From NCBI GenBank assembly GCA_963664435.2, contig CAXXKM010000001.1:1088001-1152000 (forward strand): a DNA stretch of 64,000 nt. Direction: 5' to 3'. How positions within the stretch are numbered: position 1 is the stretch's first letter; every line of letters starts with the position of its first letter. Positions 1 through 19,346 of the stretch are shown here, one piece after another. The position numbers and the translations under genes were made by a program. The stretch comes from Longimicrobiales bacterium. GTDB lineage: Bacteria > Gemmatimonadota > Gemmatimonadetes > Longimicrobiales > Gaopeijiaceae. The notes beneath the pieces are model-generated. The model saw only the letters and a list, made by a program, of their open reading frames with translations. It was not told where the DNA came from and did not search any database.

Positions 1-315
1 GCCGGAGACCGCCCAACTCCGCCGGTACCGGACCCTCGAGCCGATTGCCGTCCAGGGACAGCCCCCGCAGGTGCACGAGGCTCCCCAGCTCCGGCGGAAT
101 CGGACCCTCGAGCCGGTTGCCGTTGAGCCACAGCCCCTCCAGACCGGCGAGATTCCCCAGCTCTGGAGGGATCGGACCCGCCAGCGCGTTGCCGCTCAGG
201 CTCAGCGACGTCAGGCCCGCGAGATTCCCCAACTCCAGCGGAATCGTGCCCTCGAGCGTATTGCCGTCGAGCCACAGCTCCTCCAGATCGGCGAGATTCC
301 CCAGTTCCGGCGGAA
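1..315 (-). pseudogene. 3' (distal) portion of an interrupted LRR lipoprotein gene; runs off the left edge
   Basis: Minus strand reads PPELGNLADLEELWLDGNTLEGTIPLELGNLAGLTSLSLSGNALAGPIPPELG..., 24-aa/72-bp plant-type LRR units; joins in frame to 6646-7330 across the att repeat. Confidence 0.9.
304..315. repeat. att core, left copy GTTCCGGCGGAA
   Basis: Identical to 6646-6657; lies within the palindrome AGTTCCG-G-CGGAACT (303-317). Confidence 0.85.
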
Positions 316-496
316 CTAGATATCCGTTGTCCCATGTAGTCCAATGAGGTACATGAGTGCGTTCATAACACGTTATTGGACAACCGTTTCCGGTGGTACT
401 GTCTCGTTTCATCGTCCCTTGCCGTCCGTTGTGATCCCGTGTATTCTTCCCTGTAGAGTGATTTGGTATGTGATACACAACGGCAGGAAGGACCGC

Positions 497-1651
497 ATGA
501 CGAAGCGACCCAAGACGCTTACCGCCGCCTTCGTTCGGACGGTCAGCCGACCCGGAGTCTACGGCGACGGACGAGGAGGCCGCGGGCTGAGCCTCCGGGT
601 GTACCGGACGGCCAACGGTCGGATCACCAAAACGTGGCGTCAGCGCGTCCGGATCGACGGGCGACTCACCTCGATCGGTCTCGGTCCGTATCCCGAGGTC
701 ACGCTCGCCGACGCCCGGGAAAAAGCGCTGGACAACAGCCGGAGGGTTCGCCGGGGACAGGATCCGCGCGGGCGCGGCGTGCCGACCTTCGCCGAGGCGG
801 CCCGGCGGACCATCGAGCTTCACCGCGACTCGTGGAAGGCCGGGAGCCCCTTGCCTCAGCAGTGGGAATCCACGTTCCGGCTCCACGCCGCCCCGCTCCT
901 CGACAAGCCGGTGGACCGGATCACGAGCGCGGACGTGCTCGGGTGCCTTGGCCCGATCTGGAACTCGATGCCCACGGCCGCGCGGAAGGCCAAGCACCGG
1001 ATCGCCGCCGTGTTCCGGTGGAGCATCGGCCGCAATTACCGCCGGGACAACCCGGTCGACCGGGCGGTTGCGGCGTTGCCGAAGCCGAACGGGAACCCAG
1101 GAAGCCATCACCGCGCCCTGCCGCACGGGGAGATCGCTGCGGCGCTTCGTTCCATCCGCCGGGTGGGGGACGGGAGTCTGGCTGCGTTGTGCGCCGAACT
1201 GATTGTGCTCACGGCAGTCCGTCCCGGCGAGGCGCGTGGCGCGCGGTGGGACGAGATCGACATGGACGCGGCAAGGTGGACGATTCCGGTGGCGAGGATG
1301 AAGGCGGGACGCGAGTTCACGGTCCCGCTCAGCACGGGCGTGCTGGAGGTGCTGATTCAGGCGCGCAAGCTGTCGGACAAGTCGCCGCTGGTGTTCCCGT
1401 CGCGGACCGGCCGGACGCTTGCGCCGAAGACGGTGTCGCGGGTGCTCCAGATGGCCGGGGTGGACTCGACGCTGCACGGATTCCGGTCGAGCGCCCGGTC
1501 GTGGATGGCCGAGACCGGCGTCCCGGCGGAGGTCGCGGAAGCCTGCCTCGCCCACGTTCCCAAGAGCCGGGTCGTTCAGGCGTATCAGCGCTCCGACCTG
1601 CTGGAGAGACGCGCCGAAGTCATGCAGGCTTGGAGCGACTACCTCGGGTAG
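497..1651 (+). CDS. P4-like tyrosine integrase with N-terminal arm-binding domain
   Basis: GVYGDGRGGRGLSLRV arm domain; VRPGEARGARWDEID, HGFRSSARSW, LAH...AYQRSDL catalytic motifs; AGGAAGGA before ATG 497. Confidence 0.95.
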   Translation: MTKRPKTLTAAFVRTVSRPGVYGDGRGGRGLSLRVYRTANGRITKTWRQRVRIDGRLTSIGLGPYPEVTLADAREKALDNSRRVRRGQDPRGRGVPTFAEAARRTIELHRDSWKAGSPLPQQWESTFRLHAAPLLDKPVDRITSADVLGCLGPIWNSMPTAARKAKHRIAAVFRWSIGRNYRRDNPVDRAVAALPKPNGNPGSHHRALPHGEIAAALRSIRRVGDGSLAALCAELIVLTAVRPGEARGARWDEIDMDAARWTIPVARMKAGREFTVPLSTGVLEVLIQARKLSDKSPLVFPSRTGRTLAPKTVSRVLQMAGVDSTLHGFRSSARSWMAETGVPAEVAEACLAHVPKSRVVQAYQRSDLLERRAEVMQAWSDYLG

Positions 1652-1952: not shown

Positions 1953-2180
1953 ATGGAGACGCTGGAAGAGCTATTCAGATCGCGGGTTAGCGCGTTCCTC
2001 GGGCGTTCGAGCCTGAGCCCGACGGCGTTCGGCAAGAAGGCGCTGGGCGACCCGAACCTGATGCGCCAGATCGGTCGGGGACGCTCGCCGACGCTGAGGA
2101 CGGCGGACCGGATTCTCTCGTTCATCGCCGAGCAGGACGGAGCATCGGGCGGTGGACGCGATCCGCCTCGACGCCCGTGA
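1953..2180 (+). CDS. Small Cro-like HTH regulator
   Basis: SPTAFGKKALGDPNLMRQIGRGRSPTLRTADRI resembles phage/island small HTH proteins. Confidence 0.65.
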   Translation: METLEELFRSRVSAFLGRSSLSPTAFGKKALGDPNLMRQIGRGRSPTLRTADRILSFIAEQDGASGGGRDPPRRP

Positions 2181-2228: not shown

Positions 2229-2525
2229 ATGACCGAGAACACGATGGAACGGAGGATGAACCCGCCGATCCGCTTCCTGCGGCTGCCCGAGGTGATGGCG
2301 CGCACCGGCCTGTCGCGGAGCACGATCTACGTGCGGCTGGCAGAGGGGCGCTTCCCCCGGCCGGTCGCCCTGGGCGGGCGGGCCGTGGGGTGGATCGAGG
2401 CCGAGGTGGACGAATGGGTCCGCGAGCGCATCGCCGAGAGCCGGTTCGACGGCGCGCGGGCCGGTGAGCGCGGCGAGGCCGCGCGGGGGATTCGCCGGGC
2501 GGCAGAGGCCGGCCCGGTTCGATGA
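2229..2525 (+). CDS. alpA: AlpA-family regulator / recombination directionality factor
   Basis: RFLRLPEVMARTGLSRSTIY...GRFPRPVALGGRAVGWIEAEVDEW. Confidence 0.9.
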   Translation: MTENTMERRMNPPIRFLRLPEVMARTGLSRSTIYVRLAEGRFPRPVALGGRAVGWIEAEVDEWVRERIAESRFDGARAGERGEAARGIRRAAEAGPVR

Positions 2526-2719: not shown

Positions 2720-3058
2720 GTGGCTGAGCATCGCACCGTGATGGTCGCCGCCCGGGTCACGCCCGCGGAACACGCCGCCTGGCGGGAGAAGGCGGCTGCG
2801 GCGGGCGTGTCGCCGTCCGCGCTGCTGCGCGAGGCGATGGCGCGGACCCAGACCTGGACCGCATCGGCACGGGCCGTCGAGCGCAAGCGCACCCGCCAGA
2901 TCGCGCGCATCGGAAACAACCTGAACCAGCTGGCGCGCTGGGCGAACACACACGCCTCGACGGCCGAGGCGGTCTCGGTGATCGCCCATTTGGTGTCGTT
3001 CGAGCGGTCGCTGCTCGCCGTGGCACGCATCGGCGAGGAGGCCCGCGATGCTCGTTAA
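2720..3058 (+). CDS. mobC: MobC/MbeC relaxosome accessory protein
   Basis: RHH-like N-terminus and RQIARIGNNLNQLARWAN motif; overlaps the relaxase start. Confidence 0.9.
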   Translation: MAEHRTVMVAARVTPAEHAAWREKAAAAGVSPSALLREAMARTQTWTASARAVERKRTRQIARIGNNLNQLARWANTHASTAEAVSVIAHLVSFERSLLAVARIGEEARDAR

Positions 3059-4571
3059 GTTCCTCTCCCATGGGAAGGGCTCGGCCCGGGCGGCGGTCGA
3101 GTATCTCGTCGGCGAGCGGGACGCGGCGGGACACGAGCGCGAAGGCGTCGAAGTCTTGCGCGGGAACCCGGAGATGGTGGCCGCCGTGGCCAACTCGCTC
3201 GACTTCGAGCGCAAGTACACGTCGGCCGTGATCGCATGGGCGCCGGAGGACCGGCCGACCGGCGAGCAGATCGGAGCCGTCCTCGACGAGTTCGAGAAGA
3301 CCGCCTGGGCGGGACTGGAGCCGGACCGCTACGCGTGGACGGCCGTCCTGCACCGCGAGCGCGGCGGTGGCGTCCACGCGCACATCCTCGCCGCGCAGTG
3401 CGACCTCCAGACCGGGCGGAGCCTGAACATCGCGCCTCCCGGCTGGCAGCAGACCTTCGCCCCGCTTCGCGACGCCTTCAACCACGAGCACGGCTGGAGC
3501 CGCCCGGACGACCCGGCGCGAGCCAGGGCGCAGCGGCCGGGCCACGTGGCCTACATCGAGGCGTCGAAGCTGCGGGCCGGACTCGAACACGAGGCGGACC
3601 CCCGCACGCTGATCCGCGACTATCTGGTGCAGCGCGTCGAGCACGGCGCGGTCAAGGGCCGCGCCGACGTGGTCTCCGCGCTGGAGGACGTGGGGCTTGA
3701 GGTGCCCCGCCAAGGCAAGGACTACATCACCGCCCGCGATCCGGAGAGCGGCAAGCGGTGGCGGCTGAAGGGAGAACTGTATGAGCGAGACTTCGAGCCC
3801 GAACGACTTGACCTCGCGGCTGAGGAGCAGGCTGGAGGCCGACCGGAAGGAGATCGAGGAGACGGCCACGCGCGAGCTCAGGCGGCTTGGCGAGAGCTTA
3901 GGCGCCGTCAGAAGCGACGCGCTGCGTTCCATCGAGGCCGATACGGTCGAGGCGACCGGGCGGATGCGCGAGTTGCTGATGAAGGCCTGGCTCCGGCCGC
4001 TGGTGGTCGGCATGAGCCTCTTCCTTGGTATCTGCGGCGGCAGCTGGGCGACGATGCACTGGTTGTCGAGGAGCATCGACTCCCGGATCGAGACCTTGGC
4101 GGAGGTCAAGCTCAGGATCGTGCGGGCGCGCGACACCTTGGCGGTGATGCACGAGACGACGTGGGGCATCGAGTTGCAGGAAATCAACGGGGATCGGTAC
4201 GTGTTGCTGCCCGCCGACACTCCGGGCCGTCCGGCATTCACCATGGACGGACGGCCCTACATGAAGCTCTCGAGAGAGTGAGGAGGGAGTTGCATGAACG
4301 ACTTGGAACGGCAGTTGACAACCGCCTTGGAGCGGTTGTCCGAGCAATACGAAACGGAACAGCGGCGGCACTGCGGACAGATCGAAACGTTGCGCGAGCA
4401 GGTCGAAGCCTTGCAGCGGCAAGTCGAGCGGCTGAGCGGGCGGGTGACGGAGTTGACCGGATACTCCGGGACCTACGGCGCAGGGCCAGGGCGCGGGTGG
4501 AGATGACGCGCCGACTGGTGGAAAAGATCAGGCGTCCCGGGCCGGATCGGGACTCGGGGCCGAGCCGGTGA
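3048..4571 (+). CDS. Relaxase, ColE1 MbeA-like (MOBP)
   Basis: MLVKFLSHGKG..AVEYL, VLRGNPE, KYTSAV, VLHRERGGGVHAHIL, DLQTGRSL. Confidence 0.9.
   Translation: MLVKFLSHGKGSARAAVEYLVGERDAAGHEREGVEVLRGNPEMVAAVANSLDFERKYTSAVIAWAPEDRPTGEQIGAVLDEFEKTAWAGLEPDRYAWTAVLHRERGGGVHAHILAAQCDLQTGRSLNIAPPGWQQTFAPLRDAFNHEHGWSRPDDPARARAQRPGHVAYIEASKLRAGLEHEADPRTLIRDYLVQRVEHGAVKGRADVVSALEDVGLEVPRQGKDYITARDPESGKRWRLKGELYERDFEPERLDLAAEEQAGGRPEGDRGDGHARAQAAWRELRRRQKRRAAFHRGRYGRGDRADARVADEGLAPAAGGRHEPLPWYLRRQLGDDALVVEEHRLPDRDLGGGQAQDRAGARHLGGDARDDVGHRVAGNQRGSVRVAARRHSGPSGIHHGRTALHEALERVRRELHERLGTAVDNRLGAVVRAIRNGTAAALRTDRNVARAGRSLAAASRAAERAGDGVDRILRDLRRRARARVEMTRRLVEKIRRPGPDRDSGPSR
3781..4281 (+). CDS. MbeB-like mobilization protein nested in the relaxase gene
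   Basis: Alternate-frame ORF with coiled N-terminus and a TM segment, in the position of ColE1 mbeB. Confidence 0.65.
   Translation: MSETSSPNDLTSRLRSRLEADRKEIEETATRELRRLGESLGAVRSDALRSIEADTVEATGRMRELLMKAWLRPLVVGMSLFLGICGGSWATMHWLSRSIDSRIETLAEVKLRIVRARDTLAVMHETTWGIELQEINGDRYVLLPADTPGRPAFTMDGRPYMKLSRE
4294..4506 (+). CDS. MbeD-like protein nested in the relaxase gene
   Basis: MNDLERQLTTALERLSEQY resembles the MbeD N-terminus; RBS GAGGAGGGAG. Confidence 0.75.
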   Translation: MNDLERQLTTALERLSEQYETEQRRHCGQIETLREQVEALQRQVERLSGRVTELTGYSGTYGAGPGRGWR

Positions 4572-6158: not shown

Positions 6159-6645
6159 TAGCCCCCTTCCATCTTTGGTTTGACGCTAGGCGCGCCGGCG
6201 ATAATCGGGTGCCCCGGTCCCGATGGAGGTGAAAGGGAGGATGCTTCGTCGGGCTGCCCGGTCGCGATCAAGGGCAAACGCCGCACGAGGTAGCGCCCAA
6301 GCCACGAATGAGGCGGCTGGCCCGCCGCCCGCGGATAGGCCAACCGAAGGGGCTCGCCAGCCGGCGATATCGTTTCGACACCACGGGTATCGTCTTCGCT
6401 CTCTACTCCGCGTCCCGATGGAGGTGGCAGCGGGGCGCTTCGTTGGTTGCTCGGTCCCCGCTGAGCCTCACCCCCACGATCCGCACAACCGGTCGCTCGC
6501 CACGGCCTGACCGAACGGTTACATCCAACGGCATCCGGTGCGGTCGCGTGGATTCCTGCTCATTTCTGTATATCTCAGGTGGTACATGAACGCCAAATGT
6601 CCGTGTAACCCGTTGTAATATAGTCGTTTAGCATCGTGTGCAATG

Positions 6646-6657
6646 GTTCCGGCGGAA
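6646..6657. repeat. att core, right copy GTTCCGGCGGAA
   Basis: Identical to 304-315; LRR homology stops exactly here. Confidence 0.85.
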
Positions 6658-7330
6658 TCGGACCCGCCAGCGCGTTGGCGCGCAGATTCAAGGACGTCAG
6701 GCCCGAGAGACGCCCCAGTTCCGACGGGATCGTCCCCCGCAGGCCGTGCGACACCCACTCCCCGGTCTCCCCGTCCTGGCGGCCGCCGAGGTCCAGGCGG
6801 ACGACCCGGCCGAAGGCGTCCGTCTCCACCCCGCGCCAATCCTCCAGCGGCCCGTCGGTCAGCCAGTTCTCGTCGTCGGCCCAGTTCGGCCCGTCCGTCG
6901 CCGCGTGGAGCGCGGCCAGCGGCGCCCGGTCCCCACTCTCCACCGCGACGGTCACCGTCGCCGTGCCCGCAACCGCACCGACCGTCGCCGCGACCGTGGT
7001 CGTCCCGTTGCCGGTCGCCGCCACCAAGCCCGACCCGCCGACCGTCGCGACCTCGGGGCGCACGCTCGTCCAGATCACCGCCACGCCGGACATCGCCCGC
7101 TCGTTGCCGTCGCGCACGTGCGCGCTGAGTTGCACGGTCGCGTCCGGCGCCGTGAGCGACGCGGCCGCAGGCGTGACCGTCACGCTGGCCACGCCAAGCG
7201 TCTCGGAGGGAGGGCGCGTTGCGTCGTCGCCGCACCCCGACGACGCACACGCCGCGACCGCGCAGATCGCCAACAACGGGACGCGAATCCGTGTGCGGAC
7301 GTTCGGGGCCCCATCGCTCTCTCGTTCCAT
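6646..7330 (-). pseudogene. 5' portion of the interrupted Ig (Big_2) + LRR lipoprotein gene
   Basis: Lipobox SSGC, Ig-like VTVTP...WTSVRPEVATV, LRR N-cap ALHAATDGPNW...WRGV, first LRRs; truncated at IPPE (read-through stop at 6575). Confidence 0.88.
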
Positions 7331-7426
7331 GCCCGCGGGATGATTCGGCCCCGGCTCCACGACGGGCTCGGAGTTCGTTCGGCGGACCGACCGGGACCGG
7401 GTTGTTGTCGTCATTGCTGAATAGGG

Positions 7427-7501: not shown

Positions 7502-10500
7502 TTAGCTGGGTGGAATGGCTGCCGGGGTGCCCTTCGCCCACGTGCCCCCGTTGTCCACCCTCGTATCGACGCGAAGCTGGCTCGCCTTCGTCAGGTTGGA
7601 CTGGCTGACTGTGTAGAGAAGGGCTGGAGCGTCATCGTCTACCCATCCGTCGGTTGCTGCGTTGGCAGGAAGGTTGAGGTCAAAGTCACTCGAGTTCCAC
7701 TTGCCCCAGTCGGATCCAGAGTCGGTTTCTGGGTCGGTGTCCCTCGATACGGTAGGCGCCGTGATGGTGCCAGCGACGACCCATTCCCATCTGTTCTCCG
7801 TGGTGGAGCCGGTCTCGACCTGGACATATAGCGCGATTCGGTGCTCCAACTGCGGGCTGCCCGCTCCAGACCAGGAAGCTGTGATCACGTCTGTCACATC
7901 GGCGCCTCCTACGCCGCCCCCGATGTCGCGGTCCACCGTGACGCCCGAGGCACCCGAGGCCACGCCGGCAAGCTCTGCAGCGGCACTGACGGCGGCCGCG
8001 GCGTCGCGCGCGGTTCCATCTGCATCTACCACTGCGTTGCCGATCTTGACGTTGATCTCCCGGTAGTCATCATCGTCGTCTTCAGGAATGATGTACGTGG
8101 TAATCCGATCGTGCTTTACGGTGGTACCGGCGCTCGCCGTCCCGCGGCCGGCGGTACCGGCGGTGTTCGCACTAGTCCTCGTCCCGCGGATGGCGGGGGC
8201 CACGGTGGTGACGCCGCCCGAGGGCGCAGCAAAGGTGCTGCCGGTCGCGGTTGTCAAGGCGACGGTCGCATCATCCGCGGCCGTGTACGGGTTCGTGTTG
8301 CCGGCGCCGTCGTCGCCGGGTGCATTTCTGGTCTCGTAGTGCCACGTCACCACGATCGTGTCCGTAGGTTCTCCCTGGACGAGGCTGAATCCACGGGTGG
8401 CCGCGTCCGGTGTAATGGCGCTGGCCGGAACGGCCTCGCCTTCATGGGCGGCCCTTATCGTCACCCGCCTGACGCTCGCGATTCGGGGCTGGACGCTGTT
8501 TCCGGTGAACGTGCCGAACTGCAAGGTCTGGCCGGGGATGACGGCGATCGTGCCGCCGGGTCTGGTTGCCGGCGGATCGAACCAGGTATACCTCTCCGCG
8601 TCCCTCAGATTCAGGAAGTTCGGATGGGTGGGATCATAGTCGTCCCGAGGCGCGGCGCTGAGGGTGACGGTGCCGCTCAGGGTGGGCACCTTGAGGCTGA
8701 ACGTCCCGGTCTCCGTGGTTGTCACTTTAGTGCTACCCGACGTGGGAGCAGTCCAGGACGCCGTGACCGTAACCTCGGCGTGGGGCATGCCGCCTCCCGG
8801 ACCGGTCACCAGGCCAACAATCTCGGTGGCCGCGTAGCCTGTGAAGTCGATGCTCTGGCTCCCCCCGGCGATGGCCGAGGCCTGGCGGCTGGCGGGTATG
8901 AAGTGATAGCCGGTCTTACTCGGAGTCACGTCAACGAGTGGGTCATTGTTCGGCTGGATTTCGACGACCGCCGTGTAGGTGCCATCATCATCCGTCGTGA
9001 CCTTCCCTGATCCCTGCCCTGATCCCGCGTTGAGCGGGGCCTTGCCGTCCACCTTGATCTCCACGCCCTTGATCGGTGCGTTGGTACCGGCTTCCGTGAC
9101 CGTGCCGGTGATCGCGACGGTGTTGTTCGCGCCACTGAGGGAGATGTCGTGCCTCTCCACCGTGTTGGCGGCGAACGCGGGGGGGTGGGTTCCGGAGCCG
9201 GGGTTGTTAGTGGAATCCGCCTTGGCCGCCGGATATCCCGCCCTCTCCGTATTCACGAAGAGCTGTCCCCGCACGGCGCTGATGCCGGACACGATGTAGC
9301 GGCCCAGGTCGTCGGTCGTGGCCGTCATGCCGTTCACGGTCACGGTCACGTTCTCAAGGCCGACGCCGAGCGCGTTCCGCACGAAGCCGTAAAGGGTGGA
9401 GGTGGACGGTGTGACGTCGATGTGGACGTTCGTACCGTGGCCTCCCTGCCCAAGCGGGCTGAGCGCGTCTTCCGCCTTCATGGCGCCGACCATGCCCCGC
9501 CATCCGTCGGGAAGGCCGAGCTCGTAGGCGCCGGCCGCCATGGTTTCGAAGTCGTGATCGGTGCGCTCGTCGATGTCTGTCGTCGGGTCGTTGCTCGACG
9601 CAGTGGTGAAGGACCGTCCGACACCCGCGAGATTCTTGCCTTCGGCCGGTGTCAGGCTGACCTCGACCCCCGATTGACGCTTATCCCTGGCGTCGGTCGT
9701 ACTGAATCCGGCGCCCGACTTCCTGACTCCGTTCTTCGACACGTTCGCGGTCACATCGTGCGTGGTGACGACGGCGAACGAACCGCACTTGCCGAAGTCC
9801 TGGCCGGTGGGCTCGGTCTCCGTCAGCGGACAGAGCGTCACCGTGTGCCCCCAGCCGCCCATCGCGCCGAACGCACCGCCCATCACGCCGTTCTCGGCCA
9901 TGTTGCGGTAGGTGTCAAGCCCGTGGAGGTCAAGCAGCATGTAGCCGTCCATGGCGGTCGCATGAACGACAATGTCCAGGTCCGCCGGCAGGTGGGCGAA
10001 GGTGTATGCGCCCCTGCTGCCGCTCGTGTTCGCCCTGGAGTCCCAATCATCGCTCGAGATCGGACTGGTGAACCTGCCGTCGTTCCCGCTCGCCTGCCGG
10101 ACCTCGAGATCGACCAGCCCGGCTGCCCTGACGTCGCCACCCAGGACGCTGCCCGTGTAGCCGCGGACCTGGTCGCGCTCGTGGTGCACGTAGACCTTCA
10201 GCGTCTGGGTCGTGTAGGTCACCACGATCGGAGTGGCGTCCATGTTGCCAGCCAACTTGAGTCCGTTGTGCTCGTACATGCCGCCGGACGCCTCGTACAT
10301 CTCGCCGCCGTCCAGCTCGTCGTCCTGGTCCTCGGCGGCCGCAAAGGTGAAGACTGCGGGCAGGGCGTCGGGGGCCACGACGGTCGTGAACGCCGCGTTG
10401 CCGTCGTCGTCCAGCATCGTCGGCGCACCTGGGACCGCGTCTGCGCCGGACATGACGCTGATCTCCCAGCCAGCGAGCGCTTCGCCGCCACCGTAGTCGG

Positions 10501-12388
10501 TCATGACCGTGGCGCCGCTGACGTTCACGTCAACGTTCAGGTTGACGATGTCGGCGTCGTTGAGAACCGCAGGCGGATCCGCGCCCGCCGCCGGATGCAC
10601 AAACGACTGTGGATCCCACGTCACGGCCTGCATCTCGGCCGTCGGATCCACGAAGTAGTCGTCCGCAGCAACCATCATGTGGACCGTGTTGTCGCTGGTG
10701 CCGGCACGCGCAACCTTGATCGACGCATAGACGCCGGCCTCGCTGGCCTTGGTCTCCCCGCTGCCGACCATGGCGTTGTTCGCCCCGTAGAACGTCACGC
10801 TGGCGCCGGGAATCGGATCGCCGCGATACTCGCCGCCCTTCAGCGTGACCGCGACGTTGATCGTCGTGTGTGTGATGTCGAACGGAACGGCCTGCATCTT
10901 TTGCTCACCGACGTCGAGGTCGAAGGCGTAACCCACCCCCGGTCCGCCGTACGCGACATCGTTTGCCGCGAGCGCGGCTGCAACCGTGGCGTCGATCGGC
11001 ACGACCAGCTGGTAGGAGCCGGCACGCAGACCCGGGAACATGAACGAGCCATCCGGCCCGGTCGCGCTCAGCCGCTGGTCATTGACGCCCGGGCCCACCA
11101 GCGCCACCGGAACACCAGGTGCCGGCAACGGGTGCTCGCCCGCGTCCATCATGTCGTTCTTGTCCAGTTCGTCGAGGAACAGCATCCCCGAGACGCTCGC
11201 CGTGGTGGCGTGCGCACCCTCGAAGTTCACGATCACCGACTCGTCGTCGCCGACCGTCACGCTCGAGCTCATCCCATCGAACACGTAGGCATCGCCCATG
11301 ACCGCGATCGTGACCGTGTAGTCGCCCGCTGCCAGGCCCGCGAAGGCGTACTGGCCGCTGACGTCGGTCATCGTGCTCGCGTCGGCCGCGCCTGATAGCG
11401 TGACCGCGATGTCTCCGAGTCCCATGCCCTCGACGCTCACCCGGCCGCTGATGCCCGAGGTGCGGAGCAGGACGCCCGTGAACGACACCGTGCCGGTCTC
11501 GTCGAGATCCACGCTCACGTCCTGCGACGTGGCCGCAAACTCGTAATCGCGCGGGTCGAAGTCCGCGATCTCGACCCTGTAGTCACCGGGGCGAAGTTCC
11601 TCGAACCGGAACATGCCATCGCCGTCCGTCATCATCGTGTAGCTCTCGTCGGACGGACCGCCGGTCAGCGTAACCGTAATGCCGGCAAGCCCCTCGCCTT
11701 CGATGATCACCTGACCCTCGACCGCGGAGGTGCGGATGAAGTGGCCCGTGAAGTCGGCCTGGCCGACATCGCCCACGTCAACCTCGATCTCGACGCTCAC
11801 CGTCTCGAAGGAGATGTCCTCGGGATAGTCCGAGATCGTGACCGTGTAGGTGCCCGCGCGGAGTCCGGTGAAGGCGAAGCCGCCGCTCATGTCGGTCTCC
11901 ATGGTCTCGCCCATGGCGTGCTCGCCGCCGAGGGTGACCGTCACGCCAGCCAGCGTCTCGGGCTGACCGTCGCCGCCGCTCATCATGGCGTCTGCCGCAA
12001 CCACGTTGCCGACCACCGCGGAGGAGCGGACGTACTCGCCGGCGAAGTTGAGTTGGACGTTCTGACCATCGGTCGCGATGGTCGCGGACTGCGTCACCTG
12101 GGCGAACGTCGCATCCTCGGGGAAGCCGCTGATGGTGACCGTGTAGGTCCCGGCTTCCACGCCCGAGAAGGCGAAGCTGCCACCCGACCCCGTCGTCGTG
12201 GTCGCACCCGACGACAAGGTGGCGGTGATGCCGCTGGCGGCCGTGCCTTCAATCGTCACCGTCCCCGAGATGGTTCCCACGGGAGTGGGCGGCGGGGGCG
12301 GCTCCACAGGCGGTGGAGTGCCCTCGTCGCAGGCGGTGAAGGCCAAGGCCATCAGCGTAGCTGTGGCGAAGAGTCTGAGTCGATTCAT
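7502..12388 (-). CDS. Giant surface lipoprotein with tandem carboxypeptidase-regulatory-like/prealbumin-fold repeats
   Basis: 1628 aa; lipobox FTAC, Pro linker, repeated G(T/D)Y(T/R)V(T/E)I and ISGxV units; RBS AGGAG. Confidence 0.85.
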   Translation of the reverse strand: MNRLRLFATATLMALAFTACDEGTPPPVEPPPPPTPVGTISGTVTIEGTAASGITATLSSGATTTTGSGGSFAFSGVEAGTYTVTISGFPEDATFAQVTQSATIATDGQNVQLNFAGEYVRSSAVVGNVVAADAMMSGGDGQPETLAGVTVTLGGEHAMGETMETDMSGGFAFTGLRAGTYTVTISDYPEDISFETVSVEIEVDVGDVGQADFTGHFIRTSAVEGQVIIEGEGLAGITVTLTGGPSDESYTMMTDGDGMFRFEELRPGDYRVEIADFDPRDYEFAATSQDVSVDLDETGTVSFTGVLLRTSGISGRVSVEGMGLGDIAVTLSGAADASTMTDVSGQYAFAGLAAGDYTVTIAVMGDAYVFDGMSSSVTVGDDESVIVNFEGAHATTASVSGMLFLDELDKNDMMDAGEHPLPAPGVPVALVGPGVNDQRLSATGPDGSFMFPGLRAGSYQLVVPIDATVAAALAANDVAYGGPGVGYAFDLDVGEQKMQAVPFDITHTTINVAVTLKGGEYRGDPIPGASVTFYGANNAMVGSGETKASEAGVYASIKVARAGTSDNTVHMMVAADDYFVDPTAEMQAVTWDPQSFVHPAAGADPPAVLNDADIVNLNVDVNVSGATVMTDYGGGEALAGWEISVMSGADAVPGAPTMLDDDGNAAFTTVVAPDALPAVFTFAAAEDQDDELDGGEMYEASGGMYEHNGLKLAGNMDATPIVVTYTTQTLKVYVHHERDQVRGYTGSVLGGDVRAAGLVDLEVRQASGNDGRFTSPISSDDWDSRANTSGSRGAYTFAHLPADLDIVVHATAMDGYMLLDLHGLDTYRNMAENGVMGGAFGAMGGWGHTVTLCPLTETEPTGQDFGKCGSFAVVTTHDVTANVSKNGVRKSGAGFSTTDARDKRQSGVEVSLTPAEGKNLAGVGRSFTTASSNDPTTDIDERTDHDFETMAAGAYELGLPDGWRGMVGAMKAEDALSPLGQGGHGTNVHIDVTPSTSTLYGFVRNALGVGLENVTVTVNGMTATTDDLGRYIVSGISAVRGQLFVNTERAGYPAAKADSTNNPGSGTHPPAFAANTVERHDISLSGANNTVAITGTVTEAGTNAPIKGVEIKVDGKAPLNAGSGQGSGKVTTDDDGTYTAVVEIQPNNDPLVDVTPSKTGYHFIPASRQASAIAGGSQSIDFTGYAATEIVGLVTGPGGGMPHAEVTVTASWTAPTSGSTKVTTTETGTFSLKVPTLSGTVTLSAAPRDDYDPTHPNFLNLRDAERYTWFDPPATRPGGTIAVIPGQTLQFGTFTGNSVQPRIASVRRVTIRAAHEGEAVPASAITPDAATRGFSLVQGEPTDTIVVTWHYETRNAPGDDGAGNTNPYTAADDATVALTTATGSTFAAPSGGVTTVAPAIRGTRTSANTAGTAGRGTASAGTTVKHDRITTYIIPEDDDDDYREINVKIGNAVVDADGTARDAAAAVSAAAELAGVASGASGVTVDRDIGGGVGGADVTDVITASWSGAGSPQLEHRIALYVQVETGSTTENRWEWVVAGTITAPTVSRDTDPETDSGSDWGKWNSSDFDLNLPANAATDGWVDDDAPALLYTVSQSNLTKASQLRVDTRVDNGGTWAKGTPAAIPPS

Positions 12389-13762: not shown

Positions 13763-14805
13763 CCGTGGCCGGATCGACTTACCGGCGTTACGTCGGCTGG
13801 CGCTGCAGGCTCTATCCGAGTCCCTCACAGGACGCGGCGCTGCACCGATGCAGGAACGGCCTGCGCGAGCTCTCCAATGAACTGCTCGTCGCCTCCCAAC
13901 TCAGGTACGGGGAATCCGGACGGCGGCTCTCCCTGACCGAGATGCGCGCCTTCGCGCGGGACTGGAAGCGGCAGCCGGAGCACAGGGGGTTCCCCGCCAG
14001 CGCCACCTACCGCGTCGCCGACGATCTCGACCGCGCCTTCCGCACCTGGTTCAGCAAGCCCGGCAGACGTGGGCGAAGCGGGTTCCCCCAGCTGAAGGCC
14101 ATCGGGGGAGAGCCCGGCATCTACTTCAGCAACCAGGGCATCCGCATCGAGGGCAGCCGGGTGTGGCTGCCCAAGTACGGCTCGGTGCGCTGGAAGGGCG
14201 GGAGGCTGCCCCCCGGGAGACTCGCGGGACCGTCCGGACGCAAGACCCTCGGTCTGCTCTCCGGACGAGTCTGGCTGGACGCGGGAAACCGGTGGATGCT
14301 CTCCTGCCTGTTCGAGTGCGAGCCGCTCACCCCTTCCAGGGCGAGAACGGACAAGGCCGCGGTCCGACAACACGGCCGCGAAATCATGGTGTCGGTCGAC
14401 GGGGAATCCGTCCACGTGATCCGCGAGAGCAGGGCGCTCCGCAACGCCAGACGCCGCCTGGCAAGGCTCGAGCGGCGGCTGGAGCGATGCGAATTCAAGT
14501 CCGAAGGCCGCAAGCGCACCCTGGCTCTCATGCGCAACCAGGCGCGCAAGGTCCGGAACCACCAGGCGGATCTGCAGCACAAGGCCACGACCGGCGTCGT
14601 GCATGAAGCCCGCGAGATCGAAGTCGAAGGCGCGAGCTCGGAACTGCTGCGCCAACTCGAATACAAGGCGGAGTGGCACGGCCGCCGACTGAAGGTACGG
14701 CGAGGCCCGCCGGAACCGGGGACCGGCAATCCCCGACGCGCGCGGAGACCGGGGAGCCGGTCGCTGAAACGCGAATCGCGGACGCGAAGGTCGAAAGCCC
14801 TGTAG
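13759..14805 (+). CDS. TnpB-derived protein, probably nuclease-dead
   Basis: WRCRLYPSPSQ, DLDRAFRTWF, GFPQLK, VWLPKYGSVR, LQHKATT, LRQLEYKAEWHG; RuvC-I Asp, Zn finger and RuvC-III not evident. Confidence 0.85.
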   Translation: MTVAGSTYRRYVGWRCRLYPSPSQDAALHRCRNGLRELSNELLVASQLRYGESGRRLSLTEMRAFARDWKRQPEHRGFPASATYRVADDLDRAFRTWFSKPGRRGRSGFPQLKAIGGEPGIYFSNQGIRIEGSRVWLPKYGSVRWKGGRLPPGRLAGPSGRKTLGLLSGRVWLDAGNRWMLSCLFECEPLTPSRARTDKAAVRQHGREIMVSVDGESVHVIRESRALRNARRRLARLERRLERCEFKSEGRKRTLALMRNQARKVRNHQADLQHKATTGVVHEAREIEVEGASSELLRQLEYKAEWHGRRLKVRRGPPEPGTGNPRRARRPGSRSLKRESRTRRSKAL

Positions 14806-17578: not shown

Positions 17579-19346
17579 TCCGAAAAGCCCAACTTCGGCA
17601 GCAGCCGGAAGAGCCAGACCCCGGCCGCGGCCGAGATCGCGAGCGCGACCACCGCCGCCACAGCCTGCCCGTACAGCAGATACCCCGTCCCGAAGAGCGC
17701 CGCGTAGACCAGCACGCAGCCGAGGAACCAGGCGAGGAAGGCCGCGGTGATGGACTCGGCGCCGCGCGGCCCGTCGCCCACGTCGACGACCCGCCGCCAT
17801 CCCCTGCCCATCGGCCGGATCCTGTCGTAGAAGCGCTGCAGCGTCGCCGAATCGGCGGGCGAAGTGAGGAAGGTCACCCCGAGCCAGCCGACCGTCGTGA
17901 CCGCCACCCCGATGACGAGCTGCGTCCATGCCGGGAGGGGCGCGAATCCCAGCCCCGTGTGCATCCACGCGAAATAGACCGCCACCAGGAACGAGATGGT
18001 CATGCCGGCCAGCTCGCTCCACACGTTCACGCGGTACCAGAACCAGCGCAGCAGGAAGATGAGCCCCGTCCCGGCGCCGATCTGGAGGAGGATCTGGAAC
18101 CCCTGCCCCGCAGTGTCGAGCTGAAGCGCGATCAAGGCGCCCAGCACCATCAGCCCTACGGTCGACAGCCGCCCCATCGTCACGAGCTGCCGATCGCTCG
18201 CGGCCGGGTTCACGAACCGCCGGTAGAAGTCGCTCACCACGTACGACGAGCCCCAGTTGAGCTGGGTGCTGATGGTCGACATGTACGCTGCAGCCAGGGA
18301 GGCGACCACCAGGCCGAGCAGTCCTGCGGGCAGGAACACCAGCATGGCCGGATAGGCCAGGTCATTGCCCACCAGCCGGGGTCGAGGTCCGGGAAGCGGG
18401 CCTGGATGTCCGACAGCTCCGGGTACACGAGCATCGAGCACAGCGCCACGATGATCCACGGCCAGGGCCGGAGCCCGTAGTGCGCGATGTTGAACCACAG
18501 CGTGGCCTTCATCGACTCCTTTTCGTTCTTCGCCGCGAGCATGCGCTGGGCCACGTAGCCACCGCCCCCCGGCTCGGCCCCGGGATACCACGCGCTCCAC
18601 CACTGCACCGCGATCGGGATGATGAAGATCCCCGCGGCGACGCTCCAGTCGGAGAAGTCCGGGAAGAAGTTCCTCGCCGACTGCAGATCAGGGTGCGAGA
18701 CGAGCCCCGCGAGCCCCCCGACCTCGGGCTGGCGCAGCGCGAACACGGCGGCCGCAACCGAACCGATCATCGCCACGACGAAGAGCACGAGGTCCGTGAC
18801 GACGACGCCCCACAGCCCCGATGTCGCGGAGTAGATCATGGTCACGGTTCCCGCGATCAGGACCGTGGTCAGCGGATCCAGCCCCAGGAGCACGCCGCCG
18901 ATCTTGGTCGCCGCGAGGGTCACCGTCGCGATGATCATCACGTTGTAGAAGACGCCCAGATAGATGGCCCGAAAGCCCCGCAGGAACGCCGCCGCGCGCC
19001 CCGAATAGCGCAGCTCGTAGAACTCGATGTCGGTCAGCGCGCCCGAGCGCCGCCACAGGCGCGCGTAGAAGAAGACCGTGCACATGCCGGTGATCAGGAA
19101 GGCCCACCACGACCAGTTCTGCGCGACCCCGCCGCCGCGCACGAAGTCGGCGATCAGGTTGGGCGTGTCGGTCGAGAAGGTCGTCGCGACCATCGACGTG
19201 CCCAGCAGCCACCACGGCAGCTTCCGCCCCGAAAGGAAGAACTCGTCGGCCCCGGACCCCGCGCGCCGGGCGAAGCGGAGGCCGATGGCGAGGGCAGTGA
19301 GCCCGTACAGCGCGATGACGATCCAGTCGAGCGTGGTGAGTTGCAT
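17575..19346 (-). pseudogene. Sodium:solute symporter split by a 1-bp frameshift near 18378-18381 (may be a sequencing error)
   Basis: ORFs 18234-19346 and 17575-18603 form the N and C halves; one extra C in the run joins them as DPRLVGNDLAYP. Confidence 0.8.

Follow-up and report, generated by a model that had tools for sequence, protein, structure and literature searches.

An integrative mobilisable element of sponge-associated Gemmatimonadota whose integrase clade targets leucine-rich repeat codons, with likely occasional capture of repeat units

The element and the LRR gene that it interrupts

The window (the whole 64,000-nucleotide stretch that was analysed) opens inside a minus-strand gene encoding Big_2, LRR and M66-like domains, which is split at the residues I-P-P-E|L by an element measuring 6342 bp (about 6.3 kb) between 12-bp repeats (Table 1). 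The 3' half of this gene continues for 984 codons past the window start, through a second LRR block and into the M66-like peptidase domain. An assignment of the gene as a Xop effector was rejected, as the NCBIfam scores are far below the cut-off and the matches cover only the LRRs. Since the two halves are contiguous in intact homologs, in which the first block has 7 units, the same number as the two halves combined here, the insertion is precise, with no LRR unit lost at this locus. Members of this gene family have been hit at the first, second (twice) and third unit boundaries, and also in the second block. Directly upstream of the LRR gene lies a gene (7502-12388) for a 1628-aa protein with many Ig-like/carboxypeptidase-regulatory domains, a paralog of which adjoins, on contig C3 of the same genome, an integrase 52% identical to that of the element. 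An IS605 OrfB/TnpB-like ORF is found at 13825-14805, with a weak Pfam match below the cut-off.

Table 1. Features of the element, its attachment sites and the surrounding LRR gene, in window coordinates
Feature	Position	Strand	Remarks
Host gene, 3' half	1..313	-	24-aa LRR units
Unit boundary	16..27	-	V-P-A-E, GAG codon; weak pseudo-site
Unit boundary	88..99	-	I-P-P-E, overlap as in the element, but GAG; weak pseudo-site
Unit boundary	160..171	-	two overlap mismatches, GAG codon
Unit boundary	232..243	-	I-P-L-E, one overlap mismatch, GAG codon
attL	303..317	+	host arm 303-306, putative 7-bp overlap 307-313, element arm from 314
Tyrosine integrase	497..1651	+	Arm-DNA-bind_3, Phage_int_M and Phage_integrase domains
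75-aa ORF	1953..2180	+	without family match; conserved in other elements of the same genome
AlpA-type regulator	2229..2525	+	family match
MobC/NikA relaxosome protein	2720..3058	+	family match
Relaxase	3048..4571	+	PF03432; MbeA-like below the NCBIfam cut-off
ORF overlapping the relaxase	3781-4281	+	without family match
MbeD/MobD-like ORF overlapping the relaxase	4294-4503	+	family match
Cargo ORF, 390 aa	4986..6158	+	no family assigned
Element right-end arm	6560..6648	+	conserved in five other elements
attR	6645..6658	+	12-bp repeat 6646-6657; putative overlap 6649-6655 identical to that of attL
Host gene, 5' half	6656..7414	-	Big_2 domain, cap and first LRR unit, ending in I-P-P-E
Unit boundary	6718..6729	-	I-P-S-E, GAA codon, one overlap mismatch

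The left attachment site is an interrupted palindrome, and the exact 12-mer at 304-315 recurs at the right end. The integrase, whose closest phage counterparts are about 33% identical, retains intact catalytic motifs (R, K, H-x-x-R, H and Y are all present), and its N-terminus gives a match above cut-off to PF13356 (Arm-DNA-bind_3), which we take to be the former DUF4102 arm-binding domain. The AlpA-type regulator is presumably an excision factor. A family scan of the 8 ORFs within the 6.3 kb recovered the relaxase, MobC and the MbeD-like protein among its matches and no mating-pair system. With an integrase and a relaxase of its own, bounding attL and attR sites and a target that is intact in relatives, the gene content and ends identify the window element as an integrative mobilisable element. 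The cargo ORF is matched at the DNA level at 85-88% in G011, G061 and G063, and G194 has a copy that is 100% identical. Ten more MobC-relaxase modules, about 60-75% identical, occur elsewhere in the genome with no close integrase copy beside them. Sponge metagenomes are among the sequencing runs that contain the stretch, and the records of relatives are labelled Gemmatimonadota, Longimicrobiales and Ca. Palauibacter. Neither a circle or empty-site joint nor a unit-skipping joint was seen among the 15 of 34 joints listed from assembled contigs of these runs; in 4 of 4 runs sequencing depth over the cargo contigs was about 5-9 times that over the host-flank contigs, which is a hint only and not a copy number.

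The target site in the genome and across the integrase clade

A sequence-only reading of the window had noted that the 12-mer at 304-315 recurs at the 72-bp LRR period, and both the spacing and the matches at 88-99 (11/12), 232-243 (9/12) and 6718-6729 (10/12) were confirmed, with two further unit boundaries, at 16-27 and 160-171, each scoring 8/12. Among the 209 LRR units found in the genome by one pattern, 4 score 12/12, 28 score 11/12, 33 score 10/12 and 45 score 9/12, and because 110 of the 209 (53%) thus match at 9/12 or better, the recurrence of the 12-mer alone reflects the LRR codon consensus and nothing more. The exact 12-mer occurs 10 times genome-wide, in the two element ends, 5 LRR units and 3 non-LRR places. 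The proposed count against codon expectation gave a divided answer: 4 of the 53 IPPEL units carry it, in excess of the 1.3 expected from the non-LRR context (p=0.04, with units that are not independent), whereas the codon frequencies of the site itself predict 4.0.

The comparison of insertions gives a fuller picture of the site than the 12-mer does. At every junction a host arm is followed by seven bases of the form C-N5-G and then by AAC; in terms of the gene this reads ATT/ATC, CCN CCN G, AA CTN GG, and since this string is near-palindromic, both orientations are used. The seven bases were identical at the left and right ends in 20 of 22 complete elements and differed by one base in the other 2, which suggests a 7-bp overlap. 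This is the identity across the overlap that is typical of lambda-type recombination, with cut positions taken here from sequence comparison, and not the unlike coupling sequences at the two ends that mark CTnDOT/Tn916-type elements. The site data fit a 7-bp strand-exchange region with enforced identity, as described in the available part of one study (PMC10111431), better than an IntDOT-like tolerance. We observed 13 overlaps, all linked by single-base steps, and their distribution tracks lineage: all 10 copies of one left-end family share CCGCCGG (7 inserted at I-P-P-E in one orientation, 3 at P-A-E in the other), and in another family 12 of 16 have CCGCCCG and the rest one-base variants. 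An exchange of flanks was rejected as the source of mismatched overlaps: L217 and L192 are colinear, and L235 lacks a matching outer site. The host arm is ATT or ATC in 44 of 47 cases, and GAA is present in 46 of the 49 host arms that are visible, compared with 83 of 145 units in the genome.

These features point away from the 12-mer as the real target of the integrase, as ATC is used as often as ATT, the overlap must usually match and GAA is nearly required. By the same token, the three neighbouring positions that had been named as potential targets turn out to be weak sites, two with GAG and two with an overlap mismatch. Within this genome, 19 of the 209 LRR units have both the matching overlap and GAA for this element, and sites of the form ATY-CCGCCGG-AAY number 15, of which 12 are in LRRs. 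Only one LRR unit is occupied within this genome: a search for further LRR insertions or scars in it found none, LRR frames being broken by the two ends of this element only, and the integrase next in similarity (52%) is outside LRR genes.

The relatives of the integrase give a different result. From 61 related genomes, two collection scans and further regions we gathered 233 matches of at least 70% identity; 15 that had no N-terminus were dropped, and the remaining 218 yielded 126 distinct left ends, whose sources are assemblies, some of them bins, and which are not independent events. LRR P-x-E codons hold 96 of these left ends (91 assigned by script, 5 by eye); a further 24 (21, and 3 by eye) are at ends of another element family, and 6 are elsewhere or unplaced. 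The 96 LRR left ends fall into 92 host-flank clusters at 80%, with 47 in the same and 49 in the opposite orientation, and in several genes neighbouring units are both occupied, by elements 1, 2, 3, 3 and 4 units apart. The integrase clade therefore inserts not at one conserved locus such as a tRNA gene, guaA or prfC, as expected of IntSXT relatives, and instead uses an LRR codon string in many genes and units, as the sequence-only reading had proposed. The further copies in LRR genes that it had asked for were found, and the possibility that the element is confined to the one unit, which would have spoken against that reading, fails. Among them is a 99.9% identical element in a different LRR gene of G194, another genus of the same family, with the same overlap as the window element, other arms and a 1.5-kb nested insertion; this degree of identity implies recent transfer. 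On these comparisons, the targeting of LRR codons by the clade is well supported. Transfer across phyla is not claimed, as the records labelled Acidobacteria and Binatia are short contigs that may be misbinned; one double insertion is identical in two differently labelled bins.

Several observations concern the margins of the clade. Of the 24 left ends at the other element family, 20 form a clade with support of 1.0 nested among the LRR-targeting integrases, in a tree whose rooting was not tested. Their target is a 15-bp motif with 71 copies in the genome, many just upstream of another tyrosine-integrase gene (L048, L051, L049, L055, L057 and others; L396:244-1401). We interpret this sister subclade as a target switch, LRR codons having been exchanged for the ends of a different element family; this replaces an initial assignment of its target to IS ends. 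Two insertions outside LRR genes (L185 and L186) keep the arm and the C-N5-G pattern and are likely to be at secondary sites. At L039:11630-11984 an LRR gene is present as cargo inside an element of this family, together with a second integrase. The I-P-A-E site of one gene is a hot spot, being occupied in three assemblies (L218, L388 and L211) by at least two occupants with different right ends.

Likely capture of repeat units by individual elements

The sequence-only reading had further suggested that excision through a neighbouring pseudo-site could carry off whole LRR units, and for this we found one apparent natural product and a likely second. The first, L218, lies on a 4.84-Mb contig of G061, where the order is host 3' half, attL, element, right end, two LRR units and then the host 5' half, joined tail to tail. 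Read in the orientation of the element, each of the three overlaps is CCGCCGG, and the inner end aligns with the right ends of other elements. Among 14 homologs of the host gene, 12 run directly from the 5' half to the 3' half, one has another element there and one is cut short; the two units are absent from all 12 intact homologs, and their best other match in G061 is 74%. A donor gene for them was not found (best matches 74% in DNA and 75% in protein). The second case, L223, is a mirror image at the left end, where the single homolog (78%) has different units.

L218 is likely to be the expected product of excision at a neighbouring pseudo-site. By the simplest path, which requires no mismatch, the element would have been resident in another LRR gene and have left it by way of a matched site two units past attR, and its circular form would then have integrated in the opposite orientation at the I-P-A-E site; the donor gene would thereby have lost two units in frame. 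Judged from these junctions, capture of whole LRR units at a neighbouring site is likely to be real but rare. Captured units are visible in the absence of homologs only if they landed inverted, those in the same orientation being in frame and hidden.

In-frame change of a host gene is a different matter. The halves are colinear with intact homologs in the window, at L348, at L038 and in the pair L217/L192; L225 is one unit shorter than its single, distant homolog (69%). Homologs close enough to test in-frame gains were found neither for L041, L032, L224 and L226 nor for 16 other complete elements. At L041 (10158; 18493-18709) LRR 5' halves lie at both ends and a second element is three units away, possibly by flank exchange, capture or misassembly. 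In the family of the window gene, with 47 intact members of which 2 were unparsed, the first block has 7 units in 40 of 45, 8 in 4 and 6 in 1, and one further intact homolog has 4; the variant units resemble copies made within the gene, and their breakpoints cannot be assigned to the motif. The suggested in-frame deletion or swap of LRR units could thus be tied to an element in no case. As a mechanism of LRR diversification, the proposal is supported for the route by off-site excision (L218) and is not supported for in-frame change of the host gene by an element or for a role in the service of the host.

Interpretation and relation to known systems

Based on these observations we propose, with a probability of about 0.8, that the window element is integrative and mobilisable, that its integrase clade occupies the quasi-palindromic Ile-Pro-x-Glu-Leu codons of the 24-residue LRR units of sponge-associated Gemmatimonadota, and that the element probably excises at times through the same motif one or more units away, taking whole LRR units with it. 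The integrase would bind inverted arms, ATY on one side and AACT on the other, and exchange strands across the 7-bp overlap CCN CCN G. The element's own overlap would pick both the unit and the orientation, CCGCCGG fitting I-P-P-E one way and I-P-A-E the other, and rare one-base mismatches would allow overlaps to drift. If excision is precise, the gene would be restored; if it takes place at a neighbouring unit, the donor gene would lose n x 72 bp in frame, and the excised units might be left in frame in the next. The element's purpose is most likely selfish, with LRRs as an abundant, lineage-specific and probably dispensable landing pad and repeat shuffling as a by-product. A more speculative extension, which we consider less likely than not, is a bacterial LRR-shuffling machine, in which off-site excision deletes repeats in frame, conjugative transfer carries them to another cell or genus, and a second excision, this time at the inner end, deposits them in frame within a new LRR gene, reshaping the eukaryote-like surface proteins of sponge symbionts enough to be of consequence for the host lineage.

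It is unlikely that the system serves the host, with hosts keeping integrase-compatible codons and using the elements to delete, gain or swap units in frame. The foreign units of L218 and L223 and the variation in unit number among intact homologs are in keeping with such a role, as is codon use: GAA occupies 68 of 120 positions at the site but 63 of the 169 other E-L pairs of these genes and 99 of the 282 P-x-E-L strings outside LRR genes, and among the matches listed at least 11 of the 24 genomes in which GAA makes up half or more of the site codons are carriers, compared with 0 of 10 below half. However, G014, G001, G090 and G097 are equally GAA-rich with no LRR-type integrase among the matches listed, and the GAA-poor G006 and G008 are GC-richer. 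Host selection for targets was set aside as the cause of this pattern, GC content and genome size being confounders; G014, G001, G010 and G009 (66-67% GC) use GAA at the LRR site well above background, whereas in G006 and G008 (70.5% GC) its use does not exceed background. Unit number is, moreover, mostly stable, in contrast to what is seen in programmed diversification of the shufflon or VLR type, with the same number in 40 of 45 homologs and no element-linked variant, and the variant units look copied from within the same gene. An inserted element breaks the gene, about half of the insertions have the opposite orientation, in which any captured units would end up inverted, and the genome has a single LRR insertion, in a gene with the modal 7 units.

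Marginally less probable still is the view that LRR targeting is real and excision always precise, with L218 and L223 as assembly artefacts or rare rearrangements of some other cause. Both loci come from one assembly, G061; a pattern search of 49 genomes found no other head-to-head or tail-to-tail LRR junctions, the tail-to-tail pattern being otherwise at background level, and the four tested elements are colinear with intact homologs. Against this, the 157-bp segment of L218 is single-copy in G061 and so cannot stem from a collapsed repeat; each of its ends coincides exactly with the motif and has the overlap of the element itself; and a local inversion is ruled out by the homologs, which are without the two units. 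A one-off insertion at a chance secondary site, with the true target elsewhere and the recurrence due to codon consensus only, would agree with the 9/12 matches in 53% of units and the single LRR insertion in this genome, and is refuted by the 96 LRR insertions among 126 left ends, outside the other-target subclade only a handful being elsewhere than in LRR codons, and by the G194 copy, which leave it hardly any credibility.

The capture that we propose has a counterpart in specialised transduction of the lambda dgal type, in which aberrant excision of a prophage at a secondary att site captures flanking host DNA; it would differ in that the secondary sites recur every 72 bp in frame and each capture comprises an integral number of protein repeats. 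A known clade of AlpA-bearing elements in phage late genes also inserts within the coding sequences of one gene class, typically with 7-bp identity at the point of strand exchange; as far as the available part of its description goes, its targets are not tandem protein repeats, and neither a periodic target nor capture of repeat units is involved. In its make-up the window element resembles the IntSXT-subgroup (P4/SXT-type) elements, which share the arm-binding tyrosine integrase, AlpA, relaxase, MobC and a short direct repeat at the ends (PMC8138268), and its integrase has the domain set of that subgroup, with the N-terminal DUF4102 represented by the PF13356 match. Unlike the IntSXT clusters, which in the portion of that study available insert at single conserved loci (tRNA genes, guaA and prfC), its target is a codon string with many copies per gene and dozens per genome, used in both orientations (PMC8138268). 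CTnDOT likewise has several targets, with an overlap that dictates orientation and, when symmetric, allows both; in the text available, IntDOT recombines mismatched overlaps, whereas the 20 of 22 matching overlaps seen here are closer to the lambda rule (PMC2817482). Movement of whole repeats between genes has been proposed for the 90-bp LRR exons of Tetrahymena, where REP retrotransposons lie beside LRR units (PMC6564038), and for the shuffling of 72-bp LRR exons in brown algae (PMC11378527). To judge by the accessible sections of both papers, those cases are eukaryotic and intron-based, with transduction proposed and not shown, in contrast to a site-specific integrase at the repeat boundary here (PMC6564038, PMC11378527); the brown-algal paper, in the same sections, states that no site-specific recombinase is reported (PMC11378527). 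In the full text of open papers, supplements aside, we found no description of an integrase targeting LRR codons, and att-site tables in supplements could hold such sites unnamed. The element type itself is known; what appears to be new is a family of integrative mobilisable elements that uses the codon consensus of a protein repeat as its attachment site.

With LRR codons as its attachment site, the element can land in register at dozens of places per genome, and its insertions would explain why LRR genes are often split in the assemblies of these symbionts. Because the sites recur in frame, off-site excision would be a ready route to delete or move whole LRR units. As a natural series, the integrase family would also allow the drift and switching of integrase targets to be studied. 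Sponge symbionts are enriched in eukaryote-like proteins, LRR proteins included, according to the available part of a recent account (PMC11706023), and with one enzyme and a defined site of 13-15 bp the diversification of sponge-symbiont repeat proteins becomes testable.
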